A stretch of DNA of 24,000 nt from positions 381,142-405,141 of the forward strand of contig NZ_JAFBDS010000001.1 of NCBI RefSeq assembly GCF_016908375.1, written 5' to 3'. Shown piece by piece: positions 7,052 through 15,542 of the stretch. This stretch comes from Amphibacillus cookii (GTDB taxonomy: Bacteria; Bacillota; Bacilli; Bacillales; Amphibacillaceae). The notes beneath the pieces are model-generated. The model searched no databases and was not told the origin of the DNA. It saw only the letters and a list, made by a program, of their open reading frames with translations. The position numbers were made by a program, and so were the translations under genes. The number at the start of each line of letters is the position of its first letter. Within the stretch, counting starts at the first letter, position 1.

Positions 7052-7330
7052 TGATAATTGGATAACCGACTGTAAAACCCCCTCTCAATTAGAAAGTAGA
7101 GATAAATCTATCTAGGTGTAGGTGATAACTGACGCTCATGTCCTGATGCACTCACCATTAGTGGGTGGGTAAGATCGTAGACTAAAACCGCCACATCTTT
7201 AAAAGGATTACAGACTAAGATCGCCACGTCCTGTGGCAACGTCTGCATGACCTACATCCTGTAGGCCCACGTCTGTATGACCTACAATCCTGTAGCCCTC
7301 CGCCCGCGGATTGAAGGTTCGTTTTATTTA
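7052..7330 (+). repeat. Composite structured repeat, copy B (5' module + closing helix + hairpin array)
   Basis: 5' module 7052-7160 (GATAAC boxes at 7061 and 7124). Closing helix GTGGGTGGG 7161-7169 pairs with TCCGCCCGC 7299-7307. One 33-nt AGACTAA..GGATTAC unit (7179-7211). Three hairpins: GCCAC-GUCCU-GTGGC 7223-7237, CCTAC-AUCCU-GTAGG 7251-7265, CTAC-AAUCCU-GTAG 7282-7295. Tail GATTGAAGGTTCGTTTTATTT. Confidence 0.85.
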
Positions 7331-7402: not shown

Positions 7403-7410
7403 TCTGTTAA

Positions 7411-7483
7411 CGCGCTCGGAGGGATTCGAACCCCCGACACATGGCACCGGAAACCATTGCTCTATCCCCTGAGCTACGAGCGC
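7411..7483 (-). tRNA. tRNA-Arg (anticodon CCG)
   Basis: The reverse complement folds as a 73-nt cloverleaf: acceptor GCGCTCG/CGAGCGC, D arm GCTC-AGGGGATA-GAGC, anticodon arm ATGGT-TTCCGGT-GCCAT (anticodon CCG), variable GTGTC, T arm GGGGG-TTCGAAT-CCCTC, discriminator G. No CCA is encoded. Confidence 0.9.
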
Positions 7484-7509
7484 ATAATAGAAACAAAAGG
7501 ACAAGAAAT

Positions 7510-7605: not shown

Positions 7606-7671
7606 AATGAACGAGGTTTAATTTTCCATTTGTTCGGGGAAGATGTAGTTAATAAATGTGTTGAATTGAAC

Positions 7672-7900
7672 GATCACAGATAACCGTCCGTAAAAGGCCC
7701 GCCTCAAAATAGAGAACAGAGCTCATCTATTAAGGCTGGAGATAACGGATACTCTTGTCCTAATTCACTCAATTAACCGCAGTGGGCGGGTAAGATCGTA
7801 GGTCACGTCCTGTGGCAACGTCTGCATCACCTATATCCTGTAGGCCCACGTCTGCATGATCTATGTCCTGTATCCGTCCACGGGTTGAAGGTTCGTTTTA
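7672..7900 (+). repeat. Composite structured repeat, copy C
   Basis: 5' module 7672-7780 (GATAAC at 7679 and 7741). Closing helix 7782-7792 pairs with 7871-7881 (11 bp including two G-U). No AGACTAA unit. Hairpins GTCAC-GUCCU-GTGGC 7802-7816, CCTAT-AUCCU-GTAGG 7830-7844 and a degenerate third (~7858-7875). Tail GGTTGAAGGTTCGTTTTA. Confidence 0.85.
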
Positions 7901-7917
7901 TTTGACCTTTATTGACC
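7901..7917 (-). promoter_or_regulatory. CtsR operator upstream of clpP
   Basis: Reverse complement GGTCAAT-AAA-GGTCAAA matches the CtsR direct repeat (A/G)GTCAAA-NAN-(A/G)GTCAAA with one mismatch. It overlaps candidate -35 hexamers TTGACC at 7902 and 7912 (TTGACC-17-TACTAT possible). Confidence 0.75.
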
Positions 7918-7981: not shown

Positions 7982-8563
7982 ATGAATTTAATACCTACAG
8001 TTATTGAGCAAACAAATCGAGGAGAGCGTGCATATGACATTTACTCTCGTTTATTAAAAGATCGGATTATTATGTTAGGTAGTGGGATTGATGACAATGT
8101 TGCAAATAGTATTGTCGCTCAACTTTTATTCTTAGAAGCAGAGAGTCCTGACAAAGATATTTCTATTTATATTAATTCACCGGGTGGCTCGATTACAGCT
8201 GGTATGGCGATTTATGATACGGTGCAGTTTATTAAACCTGATGTATCGACGATTTGTGTCGGGATGGCTGCTTCAATGGGTGCCTTTTTACTTGCGGCTG
8301 GAGCACCGGGAAAACGCTATGCTTTGCCAAATAGTGAAGTGATGATTCACCAGCCATTAGGCGGGACGCAAGGCCAAGCCTCAGATATTCAAATTCATGC
8401 TAAACGAATTATAGAAATGCGGGAAAAATTAAACCAAATTCTCTCTGATCGAACTGGTCAACCATTAGAAGTGATCGAAAAAGACACAGACCGTGATAAT
8501 TTCATGTCAGCAGAGGCAGCTAAAAAATATGGTTTAATTGATAAGGTGATGGAGAAGAAATAA
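7982..8563 (+). CDS. clpP: ATP-dependent Clp protease proteolytic subunit
   Basis: 193 aa. N-terminal [26 protein letters not shown], and GMAASMG and MIHQP motifs carrying the catalytic Ser and His. AAGGAGG SD. Confidence 0.97.
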
Positions 8564-9298: not shown

Positions 9299-9430
9299 AT
9301 AATAAAATCCTCCTAAAATATAGTGACCAATGTTTGGTCGGTCATTTTTTTACTGTTCCACTATAACAAACTTAACCCATTAAGCCAAATCAAACCTATT
9401 ATGCACTAAATTATAAAAATATGAACGGAT

Positions 9431-9745
9431 TTATCACAGATAATGGTCAGTAAACAGCCACCACAAAATAGAGAGCAGAGGTCAATCGATTTAGGTGGGC
9501 GATAACAGATGCTAATCTCCTGATTGACTCAACTACCAATTAGTGGGTGAGTAAGATCGTAGACTAAAACCGCCACATTTTTAAAAAGGATTACAGACTA
9601 AGATCGCCACTTCCTTAAGAAGGATTACAGACTAAGACCGCCACGTCCTGTGGCAACGTCTGCATGACCTACATCCTGTAGGCCCACGTCTGCATAACCT
9701 ACATCCTGTAGGCCTCCGCCCACTGATTGAAGTTTCGTTTTCTTT
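9431..9745 (+). repeat. Composite structured repeat, copy D (longest; expanded internal units)
   Basis: 5' module 9431-9540 (TTATC-ACA-GATAA at 9431-9443, second GATAAC at 9501). Closing helix AGTGGGTG 9542-9549 pairs with CGCCCACT 9717-9724. Two 34-nt AGACTAA..GGATTAC units (9561-9594, 9595-9628). Hairpins GCCAC-GUCCU-GTGGC 9640-9654, CCTAC-AUCCU-GTAGG 9668-9682 and 9698-9712. Tail GATTGAAGTTTCGTTTTC. Confidence 0.85.
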
Positions 9746-11725: not shown

Positions 11726-11744
11726 GGTGAATGTATATTATAAT

Positions 11745-11905
11745 TCCTCGTTAGGTGAGGCTCCTGTGCTGGAGATATGCTACTGCCCAAAAACGTCCAA
11801 AGACGCCAATGGGTCAACAGAGACTATCGAATTAAGGTGGTTTTTAATGTAGCTGGACTTGATCCTATGCCGCACAGTGCTAAAGCTCTACGAATGGAGG
11901 CGATC
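11745..11905 (+). promoter_or_regulatory. M-box (ykoK leader) magnesium riboswitch aptamer
   Basis: TCCTCGTTAGGTGAGGCTCCTGT...GCTACTGCCCAAAAACGTCCAAAGACGCCAATGGGTCAACAG...CACAGTGCTAAAGCTCTACGAATGGAGG matches the recalled conserved M-box blocks (GUUAGGUGAGGCUCCUG, CUGCCCAAAAAUGUC.AAAGACGCCAAUGGGU, AGUGC.AAAGCUCUACGA). It lies upstream of mgtE, as in B. subtilis. Confidence 0.85.
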
Positions 11906-11935
11906 AGGTTATTTGGGATGCACTTAAATAATTAA

Positions 11936-12135: not shown

Positions 12136-13497
12136 ATGGTCAAGTTTGAAGAATTAAATCGAGAAGATTATGCAACTGATGTGCTACATTATTTAAAAAA
12201 AGAAAATAAAAATAAATTTAGAGAACTTTTTTTGGAACTCCATCCAACGAATCAACTTGATATTTTTGTTCAGTTGAATCGTCAATTGCGAGATCGTTTG
12301 TATGTATTAATTTCAGGTGAAGAATTTGCTGAATTATTTGAAGGACTAGATTTAGAAAGACAAAAACAAATCATCTTAGAATTAGATGAAGCATATATTG
12401 CTGAACTATTTAATGCCATTCCTACTGATGAAGTAGCTGATTTACTCGCTGAATTAGAAACTTTTGAAGCGAGTAAAATATTGAATTCAATGGATAAAGA
12501 GCGTGCGATTATTATTCGTGAATTATTAAGTTATCCTATTGAAACAGCTGGTGGGATCATGGCGAAAGAATTCGTCACGATAAAGTCTACTGACAAAGTC
12601 AGTGAGGTTATTGATAATTTGAGATTTTCAGCACCTGATGCAGAAACGATATACTACTTATATGTGCTCGACCAAAAGTCAAGACTTGTAGGTGTATTAT
12701 CCTTGCGGGATTTAATTATAGCACCGGCGTTTGAAACGGTTGAAAATATTATGGGAACAGATATTGTTACCGTCACAACAGATATGGATCAAGAAGATGT
12801 TGCGAAGCTGATGAAACGTTATGACTTTTTGGCTGTCCCAGTTGTTACGAAAGAAGATGTCTTAACCGGTATTATTACCGTTGACGATGTTATGCAAGTA
12901 ATGGATGAGGAAGTTACAGAAGACTTTGATGAATTTATCGCAGCTAAAGGGGCGATTGACATTAATATAAGTTCTTTTCAAGCAGCGAAAAAACGTGCGC
13001 CATGGATTGTTATGTTGATATTTTTTGGTTTTATTACCGGTGGTGTGATCAATTCATTTGAAGAGTCCTTAGAGCAGGTTGTCATCCTTGCCGCTTTTAT
13101 TCCTTTAATCATGGATTCAGCAGGAAATGCAGGAACACAATCATTAGCGGTTGTTGTACGTGCAATTGCGACAGATTCCTTTGAAAAGAAAGGTTTATTA
13201 CATGCTGTTAAGCGAGAATTTGGGACAGGTATTATGCTTGGTGTTATTACTGGAGTTGTATTATTGATTTTAGTTCCGATAGTGTATGGCAATTTTGCAT
13301 TATCTTTTATTGTTGCTGCCTCACTATTTTTAACATTAAGTTTCTCTACAGTGATTGGTGCTATTGTTCCAGTTGTCATTAATAAATTGAAATTAGATCC
13401 GGCGATTGCTTCAGGTCCATTTATTACGACCGTTAATGATATTCTAGGATTAATTATTTATTTTACTATAGCGACGACATTTATCGCTTATTTATAA
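12136..13497 (+). CDS. mgtE: Magnesium transporter MgtE
   Basis: 453 aa. N-terminal MgtE_N helical domain, tandem CBS domains (VGVLSLRDLI, TGIITVDDVM), and a C-terminal 5-TM domain with PLIMDSAGNAGTQS and ASGPFITTVNDILGL. GAGGAGG SD. Confidence 0.95.
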   Translation: MVKFEELNREDYATDVLHYLKKENKNKFRELFLELHPTNQLDIFVQLNRQLRDRLYVLISGEEFAELFEGLDLERQKQIILELDEAYIAELFNAIPTDEVADLLAELETFEASKILNSMDKERAIIIRELLSYPIETAGGIMAKEFVTIKSTDKVSEVIDNLRFSAPDAETIYYLYVLDQKSRLVGVLSLRDLIIAPAFETVENIMGTDIVTVTTDMDQEDVAKLMKRYDFLAVPVVTKEDVLTGIITVDDVMQVMDEEVTEDFDEFIAAKGAIDINISSFQAAKKRAPWIVMLIFFGFITGGVINSFEESLEQVVILAAFIPLIMDSAGNAGTQSLAVVVRAIATDSFEKKGLLHAVKREFGTGIMLGVITGVVLLILVPIVYGNFALSFIVAASLFLTLSFSTVIGAIVPVVINKLKLDPAIASGPFITTVNDILGLIIYFTIATTFIAYL

Positions 13498-15397: not shown

Positions 15398-15542
15398 CAA
15401 CGGTAGTCTTCAATTCGTGGAGGTTTTCGTCATTCTCCCGCTGATTGGTCGTTGAGTGAATCCGGACATGAGCGTCCGTTAACTCCCGCTTAAGTGGGTG
15501 AATTCTACGCTCTATTTTGTTACAGACAGTTATCTGTGATAA
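15398..15542 (-). repeat. Composite structured repeat, copy E (inverted orientation, compact, no hairpin array)
   Basis: Reverse complement TTATCACAGATAACTGTCTGTAAC-AAAATAGAGCGTAGAATTCACCCACTTAAGCGGGAGTTAACGGACGCTCATGTCCGGATTCACTCAACGACCAATCAGCGGGAGAATGACGAAAACCTCCACGAATTGAAGACTACCG aligns with copies A-D. It lacks the C-rich segment and all internal units, as if deleted between CGCCAC repeats. Confidence 0.7.

Follow-up and report, generated by a model that had tools for sequence, protein, structure and literature searches.

The stretch of DNA considered here, referred to throughout as the window, comprises 24,000 nucleotides (nt) of an Amphibacillus genome of 3.82 Mb that is available as a draft of 29 contigs (C1:381142-405141). 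Three copies of a composite repeat element, termed B, C and D, lie on its + strand, and each carries hairpins of the orphan Bacillaceae-1 RNA motif (Rfam family RF01690). Copy B extends from 7055 to 7327 and copy C from 7670 to 7901. The gene for tRNA-Arg(CCG) lies between the two on the - strand at 7410-7484 (ARAGORN; Rfam tRNA, 60 bits) and is part of the context, not of the element. Copy C is found upstream of clpP (7982-8563), and copy D occupies positions 9430-9743. The hairpins of the window are true instances of Bacillaceae-1. The element that contains them recurs throughout the genome and behaves like a gene-less transposon, which makes the motif appear to belong to mobile DNA and not to be a stand-alone gene for a small RNA.

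The three hairpins of copy B read GCCAC-GTCCT-GTGGC (7223-7237), CCTAC-ATCCT-GTAGG (7251-7265) and CTAC-AATCCT-GTAG (7282-7295), and those of copy D lie at 9640-9654, 9668-9682 and 9698-9712. In copy C the first two hairpins are GTCAC-GTCCT-GTGGC (7802-7816) and CCTAT-ATCCT-GTAGG (7830-7844), each with one G-U pair, and the third (7858-7875) is degenerate. All nine had been listed in a first-pass annotation of this DNA and all nine read as it gave them, including the G-U pairs of copy C. Perfect 5-bp hairpins with an RTCCT loop occur five times on the + strand of the window and not once on the - strand, compared with a mean of 0.025 over 200 shuffles. When single sequences were folded, the z-score of copy B was -1.6 and that of copy D -3.1, values that are weak evidence when taken alone.

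The likeness of these hairpins to Bacillaceae-1, proposed in the first-pass annotation, was tested with cmscan against Rfam 15, in which the gathering score of RF01690 is 35 bits. Copy B (7199-7265) matched the full model, positions 1-67, with 82.2 bits (E=4.2e-14) and copy D (9616-9682) spanned the whole model with 80.9 bits (E=8e-14), so that both exceed twice the gathering score. Copy C (7787-7844) reached 33.4 bits and falls just under the gathering score because 9 nt have been deleted from the 5' half of its outer helix. The match is therefore clear for copies B and D and borderline for copy C. In copy B the core consists of an outer helix round hairpin 1, with its GUCCU loop, followed by hairpin 2, with its AUCCU loop. 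The third hairpin lies outside the Rfam model and is a tandem duplicate of the hairpin-2 unit of about 30 nt (CCCACGTCTGCATGA-CCTAC-ATCCT-GTAGG); in copy B this extra unit occupies 7266-7295 on the + strand. A loop consensus of RUCCU, as given in the annotation, agrees with the original description of the motif, in which it was reported to occur 'in many gene contexts' and a homodimeric protein partner was suggested (Weinberg et al., 2010; PMC2864571). The proximity to tRNA and clpP genes instead of rRNA genes, put forward as a new point, had thus been anticipated by the discoverers. The change from CCAC/GTGG to CTAC/GTAG, taken at first for a compensating one, compares hairpin 1 with hairpin 2 of a single motif and does not amount to covariation; genuine covariation is seen between diverged copies, as described below.

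The core is embedded in a longer structure. Copy B is made up of a degenerate head, a 5' module (7061-7156; nhmmer, E=3e-18), a closing helix in which GTGGGTGGG at 7161-7169 pairs with CCGCCCGC at 7301-7308, the Bacillaceae-1 array, and a tail, GATTGAAGGTTCGTTTTAT, which ends at 7327 with 0 mismatches. Copy C is a long form of the same element with a shortened core. Copy D, mapped by cmscan, nhmmer and a scan for the tail, begins with the head TTTATCACAG and continues through the 5' module, three AGACTAA..CGCCAC units, the core and the third hairpin to a tail that ends at 9743.

Across the whole genome RF01690 gives 131 matches above its cut-off. A profile of the 5' module gives 457 matches, of which 319 are full length and 412 keep the start of the module (the 'head'), and the 19-nt tail is found about 474 times at no more than four mismatches, against about 23 times in shuffles. 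The element is present in about 450 copies, or roughly one per 8-9 kb, and by an estimate from these counts the family makes up about 2% of the 3.8-Mb genome. Heads and tails combine into 276 pairs, 271 of them intergenic, and these fall into two length classes. The short form (130-170 nt, about 190 copies) is without Bacillaceae-1 and its 3' part is a simple hairpin, CAGTGGG-AGAAGAACGAAAAC-CCCACTG. In the long form (200-330 nt, about 85 copies) a Bacillaceae-1 array replaces the tip of this 3' hairpin, and the interior holds from none to three hairpin-2 units together with from none to three of the upstream AGACTAA..CGCCAC units. The earlier suggestion of a longer composite repeat in which the motif is the variable part is therefore borne out on the scale of the genome, long and short forms having a common head and tail.

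The boundaries of the element are well defined. In the consensus TTTAT is followed directly by the left boundary and CACAGATAAC, and the right boundary falls after GGTTCGTTTTAT, the right end being written also as ...CCCACTGATTGAAGGTTCGTTTTAT. The left boundary is sharp, with random sequence upstream and then TTTATCACAGATAAC conserved at 87-96% per position, TTTAT itself at 91-96%. Of the 276 pairs, 198 start with TTTAT and 226 finish with it, and beyond the 3' end the sequence is again random. The two ends, CACAGATAACCG... and ...GAAGGTTCG (for the right end also GAAGGTTCGTTTTAT), are unrelated to each other, and there are no terminal inverted repeats. Application of RNAalifold to 137 short-form copies returned no structure and a fold of the consensus was used for this reason; it contains a nested 5' hairpin and a 3' hairpin, each of which stops about 10-13 nt from its own end of the element. 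Constant sequence is confined to the terminal 25 nt or so of each end, and the interior consists of swappable hairpin modules. Minimal elements of 53 nt, in which a 27-nt head is joined to a 26-nt tail (TTTATCACAGATAACCGTCCGTAAAACTCCCACTGATTGAAGTTTCGTTTTAT), were seen at several unrelated loci in Amphibacillus sp. Q70 (L106) and in metagenome contigs (L162, L166, L170 and L172), which indicates that only the ends are indispensable. A direct repeat of the full element, AAAACTCCC, could yield such forms by deletion.

Among 185,579 species genomes the head was found only in Amphibacillus and in one Oceanobacillus. Its TTATC-ACA-GATAA was considered as a DnaA box or a Fur box and both were rejected, since neither consensus fits by eye. 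Bacillaceae-1 units were also seen in head-to-head pairs on opposite strands, 2-30 nt apart (C13:18892-19027; C5:77979-78114; C5:82410-82545; C8:162564-162724). In the one pair that was read, that of C13, a unit of a different subfamily lies reversed inside a TTTAT element.

A comparison with Amphibacillus jilinensis, in which the joined flanks of 40 elements were searched against the genome of that species, revealed both empty sites and extensive turnover. About nine of the 40 sampled loci are occupied in both species and nine are contiguous in A. jilinensis. One of the contiguous sites is a clean empty site, CATATAG-TTTAT-TGTTAAT, and two are nearly clean; the rest contain short remnants of head plus tail. 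At the sites of the window A. jilinensis has a degenerate copy in place of B, a short form without Bacillaceae-1 in place of C and a head-plus-tail remnant of about 45 nt in place of D. At nine further shared sites (L173-L181) the flanks are 88% identical and the elements 67% identical in aligned columns, and at six of the nine one species has a long form where the other has a short one. For the 5' modules the identity at shared sites is 72%, the same as when an A. jilinensis copy is compared with one drawn at random from the present genome; random pairs within the genome reach 77%. In a tree of the 5' modules the long or short state is barely clustered, with 60 changes against 67.9±3.2 in shuffles.

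This turnover between the two species, at the window and at the shared sites, argues that at clpP and tRNA-Arg the motif serves no conserved function specific to the locus. The copy at a given site has either been replaced, whether by re-insertion or by conversion via the conserved ends, or is decaying unusually fast. A more ambitious proposal, which we regard as quite doubtful, is that modular, structured mobile repeats of Bacillaceae make up a superfamily so far unrecognised, of which Bacillaceae-1 is the hallmark. The pair of RUCCU loops would then dock a dedicated dimeric factor, the unrelated copies at identical sites would reflect active site-directed replacement (by re-insertion or by cassette exchange via the 25-nt termini) and not simple decay, and the interior modules would be the cassettes of an undescribed recombination system.

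The elements have a strongly preferred orientation with respect to replication. When the leading strand was named by GC skew, 233 elements (86%) were found to lie with the leading strand and 37 against it, compared with 76% of genes lying with the leading strand. The bias does not depend on the direction of the neighbouring genes, being seen in convergent gaps (45:8), in divergent gaps (42:5) and between genes of the lagging strand (25:3), with p-values of 1e-14 and 3e-5, and loci from other Amphibacillus genomes are oriented 80:27. Two tandem pairs of elements were observed, each sharing exactly one TTTAT, and no other spacings were found.

Polarity of this kind could mean that the element is a DNA site kept by the host for chromosome architecture or in connection with replication, comparable to the repetitive extragenic palindromic (REP) sequences and bacterial interspersed mosaic elements (BIMEs) or to polar sequences, and that its orientation is the result of selection and not of insertion. 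The density of the copies would be in keeping with such a site, as would the finding that an element is present in both species at about half of the resolvable sites, even though the copies there are unrelated. However, the copies decay nearly neutrally, many sites of the sister species are empty or contain only a remnant, and a core function of the chromosome would be expected more widely than in Amphibacillus and a single Oceanobacillus. We consider this explanation highly improbable.

It has been shown that IS200/IS605 elements insert strand-specifically, into the lagging-strand template (PMC5027513). This template is the strand that carries the sequence of the G-rich leading strand. On balance, we infer that the element is probably a non-autonomous one of IS200/IS605 type, akin to the palindrome-associated transposable elements (PATEs). 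Like these, it would spread as single-stranded DNA. A Y1 (HUH) transposase supplied from elsewhere would cut the top strand twice, after TTTAT on the left and after TTTAT on the right, and the cut strand would be pasted 3' of a TTTAT on the lagging-strand template. Single-strand Y1 transposition of the proposed kind would account for four observations: that orientation follows replication, that inverted ends are absent, that empty sites hold a clean TTTAT and that tandem copies share a TTTAT. Machinery of an appropriate kind is resident, in the form of two insertion sequences (ISs). In three out of three independent copies of an IS200-like Y1 element the left end is immediately preceded by NTTAT (GTTAT, TTTAT or ATTAT), and a TnpB element, with HTH_OrfB_IS605, OrfB_IS605 and TNB domains, has its start immediately next to the terminal TTTAT of a long-form element.

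Several observations weigh against this interpretation. No transposase gene was found between head and tail in the genome itself, at the Y1 loci of five relatives, at 71 Amphibacillus/Oceanobacillus loci or in 11 metagenome contigs; long head-to-tail intervals contained ordinary genes or more repeat modules. When the ends of the resident IS200-like and TnpB elements were compared with the modules of the element by nhmmer, no significant similarity was detected. A likeness to the end of the TnpB IS that had been noticed by eye was rejected once the right end of the IS had been mapped, the look-alike 'AAGGTTGATTTTAG' proving to be flanking DNA. The presence of TTTAT at both ends fits a 5-bp target duplication as well as it fits a transposon-adjacent motif (TAM) plus a transposon-encoded motif (TEM). 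The copies are old, with a mean pairwise identity of 74% in the 5' module, and no burst of identical copies that would mark current activity was seen in this genome. Finally, the leading strand was assigned from GC skew in a draft of 29 contigs, and the genes were called crudely.

If TTTAT at the two ends is a target duplication, the element might be an ordinary miniature inverted-repeat transposable element (MITE), mobilised by a DDE transposase with a strong preference for this 5-bp target, which it would duplicate. An empty site with a single TTTAT and an element with a copy on either side are what would be expected in this case, and other backbones that carry Bacillaceae-1 do have terminal inverted repeats, namely those of B. 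subtilis and B. licheniformis and of another genome of the same family, G050, described below. The ends of the present element, however, are not mutually inverted, and an orientation tied to replication in 86% of copies is unexpected for MITEs of DDE type, the ends of which are symmetric. Moreover, two G+C-rich palindromic backbones of Bacillaceae-1 in the same genome show no orientation bias (10:8 and 5:5). An origin by DDE transposition is improbable, and transposition of IS200/IS605 type remains our preferred reading.

The resident ISs were characterised further. The copies of the IS200-like Y1 element at L031 and L032 in this genome and at L067 in A. jilinensis have common boundaries and a right end of ...GCAGAGCAA, and the copy on C5 has an in-frame TGA. 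The TnpB element is complete at L034 (C3:237343-240546, - strand), and its right end, mapped with the help of relatives, is ...GGGAGTAGTTCA. Sequences corresponding to about the last 55 nt of this right end are present as many as 12 times in other genomes of the family and may be gene-less derivatives.

The Bacillaceae-1 core is not limited to the TTTAT element and occurs in at least five repeat backbones, of which this is one. The G+C-rich type of backbone recurs in several other genera. In G050, which belongs to another genus, the core is carried by a MITE with the inverted ends GTGTTCAAAAAGTC...GACTTTTTGAACA. About 30 Bacillaceae-1 copies in this MITE of G050 (for example at L148-L151) have an identical score of 81.8 bits, which looks like a recent burst. 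Loci of B. subtilis (NC_000964) and B. licheniformis (NC_006270) in the published alignment have repeat flanks of about 190 nt with the inverted ends CAGCGTGTCGACAAACCC...GGGTTTTGGGTCACGCTG (PMC2864571). The sequences CACAGAUAAC, AAAAUAGAGAG and GGUUCGUUUUAU of the 5' module were absent from the Bacillaceae-1 alignment of 2010 and its flanks. The GATAAC/AAAATAGAGAG 5' module, which the first-pass annotation had envisaged beside published loci, is thus missing from the neighbourhood of the 2010 loci, and these sit in other repeat backbones. Counts of RF01690 in 61 genomes of the same GTDB family range from none, in 13 genomes, to at least 69.

An alignment of the core was made from 17 diverse copies, representing three backbones of the present genome and seven further genomes. 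In this alignment 12 of the 17 pairs of the core change on both sides, and 96.9% of cells are paired; the corresponding values are 78.7% for shuffles and about 30-37% when the partners are slid. Neither the loops nor the CUAAG / AAC / UGA junctions vary across the 17 copies; of 119 copies in the genome, 92 have GTCCT as loop 1 and 91 have ATCCT as loop 2. Overall, the core is a portable structure of long standing that moves about in mobile repeats, not a conserved gene of a single locus. Because this conserved structure is carried as cargo by several unrelated backbones, the two hairpins, with their equivalent RUCCU loops, probably serve as a platform that is bound by a factor acting on the single-stranded form, DNA or RNA.

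The same conservation could reflect a trans-acting structured RNA. The copies would then be a multigene family of small RNAs (sRNAs), the RUCCU loops of which bind a dimeric protein or pair with Shine-Dalgarno-like AGGA sequences, and the backbone would be a mere vehicle. The C-rich loops of RoxS/RsaE or of LhrC provide analogues for pairing with AGGA. That loops and junctions are constant and stems compensate across backbones and genera is in agreement with this, as is the slightly better conservation of loops than of stems in the main family (93% against 88%). The 86% majority of copies also face the main direction of gene transcription, so that many would be read as RNA with UCCU loops, and a trans-acting RNA with a homodimeric partner is the explanation favoured by the discoverers (PMC2864571). 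It is difficult to reconcile with the finding that no promoter-like or terminator-like signal is present in or at the elements, and with the spread in copy number among genera of a single family, from 0 to over 130. Bacillaceae-1 has been gained or lost at orthologous sites of the two Amphibacillus species, paired and unpaired positions of the main family diverge alike (10-14%), and about 190 short forms are entirely without the motif. We regard a trans-acting RNA as unlikely.

A further possibility concerns the opposite strand. The loops of the reverse complement read AGGAC and AGGAU and so have the form of GGA hairpin-loop motifs, which are found on the minus strand only, and an RNA made from this strand might sequester CsrA, as was hypothesised in work on RMfam. 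Gardner and Eldai (2014) found strong matches to the CsrA site on the reverse complement of Bacillaceae-1, the strand being uncertain (PMC4333381). The Watson-Crick compensation in the core is compatible with both strands, and the A·C combination that is frequent at pair 12:48 of the outer stem is G·U on the minus strand. Other signals point the opposite way. Over the whole element tolerated wobbles favour the + strand, G·U being counted 632 times and A·C 331 times, with a C>U/G>A ratio of 1.39 at paired and 1.12 at unpaired positions. In the core there are 37 G·U against 25 A·C when two doubtful outer pairs are dropped, and across families all changes are two-sided. These strand signals are weak and conflicting, and the wobbles at most lean slightly towards the + (UCCU) strand. 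Since the majority of copies run in the same direction as gene transcription, it should be the UCCU strand that is transcribed most frequently, and some elements contain units in both orientations, which is a poor fit to a strand-specific sponge. A CsrA sponge is barely plausible. Of the roles that the loops might play, a protein platform on single-stranded DNA or RNA appears the most likely, an anti-Shine-Dalgarno or sponge RNA less so, and a CsrA sponge made from the reverse strand the least.

Some other features of the window should be recorded. Copy A (1345-1455, + strand; nhmmer, E=1e-30) consists of a head and 5' module and is without 3' hairpin, tail and Bacillaceae-1. A fifth copy of the 5' module lies on the - strand at 15447-15542 (nhmmer, E=3e-21) in a gene-poor stretch. 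An M-box (Mg2+) riboswitch is present on the + strand at 11740-11906 (143.4 bits), upstream of the open reading frame at 12136-13497.

Reviews rank Bacillaceae-1 among the most abundant 'sRNAs', and it has had no assigned function since 2010. The findings described here reframe the motif as the optional tip of an element that in this genome is replication-oriented, bounded by TTTAT and present in about 450 copies, and as one that rides on other backbones in other genera. They also counsel caution, in that each match to RF01690 should not be annotated as an sRNA gene. A very dense family of repeats is documented, with unrelated copies at the same sites in sister species, and the open question of the function of Bacillaceae-1 is turned into specific questions that can be tested at the bench.

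With RF01690 as published, the units described here have in common the two hairpins with RUCCU loops, the outer helix round hairpin 1, the CUAAG / AAC / UGA junctions and a host among the Bacillaceae in the broad sense. They differ in being embedded in a longer element and in having the extra tandem hairpin-2 units and the upstream AGACUAA..CGCCAC units. They differ also in number, 131 copies being present here as against 8 in B. subtilis (PMC8208703), and the published description is of a trans-acting sRNA.

The TAM of ISGst2 in Geobacillus is TTTAT, and PATE-like gene-less derivatives of such elements are present there (Meers et al., 2023; PMC10055086); the copy number of the Amphibacillus element is about ten times that of the 47 ISGst-type elements described in the same study. 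Like the PATE-like ISGst elements of Geobacillus stearothermophilus, a host of a related family, the element is gene-less, lacks inverted ends, contains subterminal hairpins, has TTTAT at its left end and is present in many copies. It is unlike them in that no cognate TnpA with matching ends was found in the searches described above, and in that its right end has TTTAT where the TEM of ISGst2 is TTCAC. Nor does it have detectable similarity to the resident TnpB element or to the RNA region of that element, and its interior is a variable array of hairpin modules.

In design the element also resembles the BOX elements of Streptococcus pneumoniae, which are modular intergenic repeats of the form boxA-boxB(n)-boxC, are rich in predicted hairpins and are present in more than 100 copies in a small Firmicute genome. 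The likeness, which was drawn from descriptions of BOX only, lies in the combination of constant end modules with a middle unit of variable number (0-3 hairpin-2 units and 0-3 upstream units). To our knowledge, BOX elements have neither TTTAT ends nor an orientation linked to replication.

The 190-nt repeat of B. subtilis differs from the Amphibacillus element in its backbone, its inverted ends and its low copy number. The repeat of about 190 nt that flanks the Bacillaceae-1 loci of B. subtilis and B. licheniformis is presumably the 190-bp repeat noted by Kunst et al. in 1997. The latter reportedly has about ten copies in B. subtilis, is common to B. licheniformis, lies mostly with the direction of fork movement and has a conserved secondary structure.

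Lastly, the HEARO RNA, now known as the omega-RNA of IscB, came from the same screen of 2010 as Bacillaceae-1. HEARO differs from Bacillaceae-1 as described here in that it adjoins the gene of its nuclease and guides the product; it nevertheless provides a precedent for an orphan motif that proved to be part of elements of the IS200/IS605 family.

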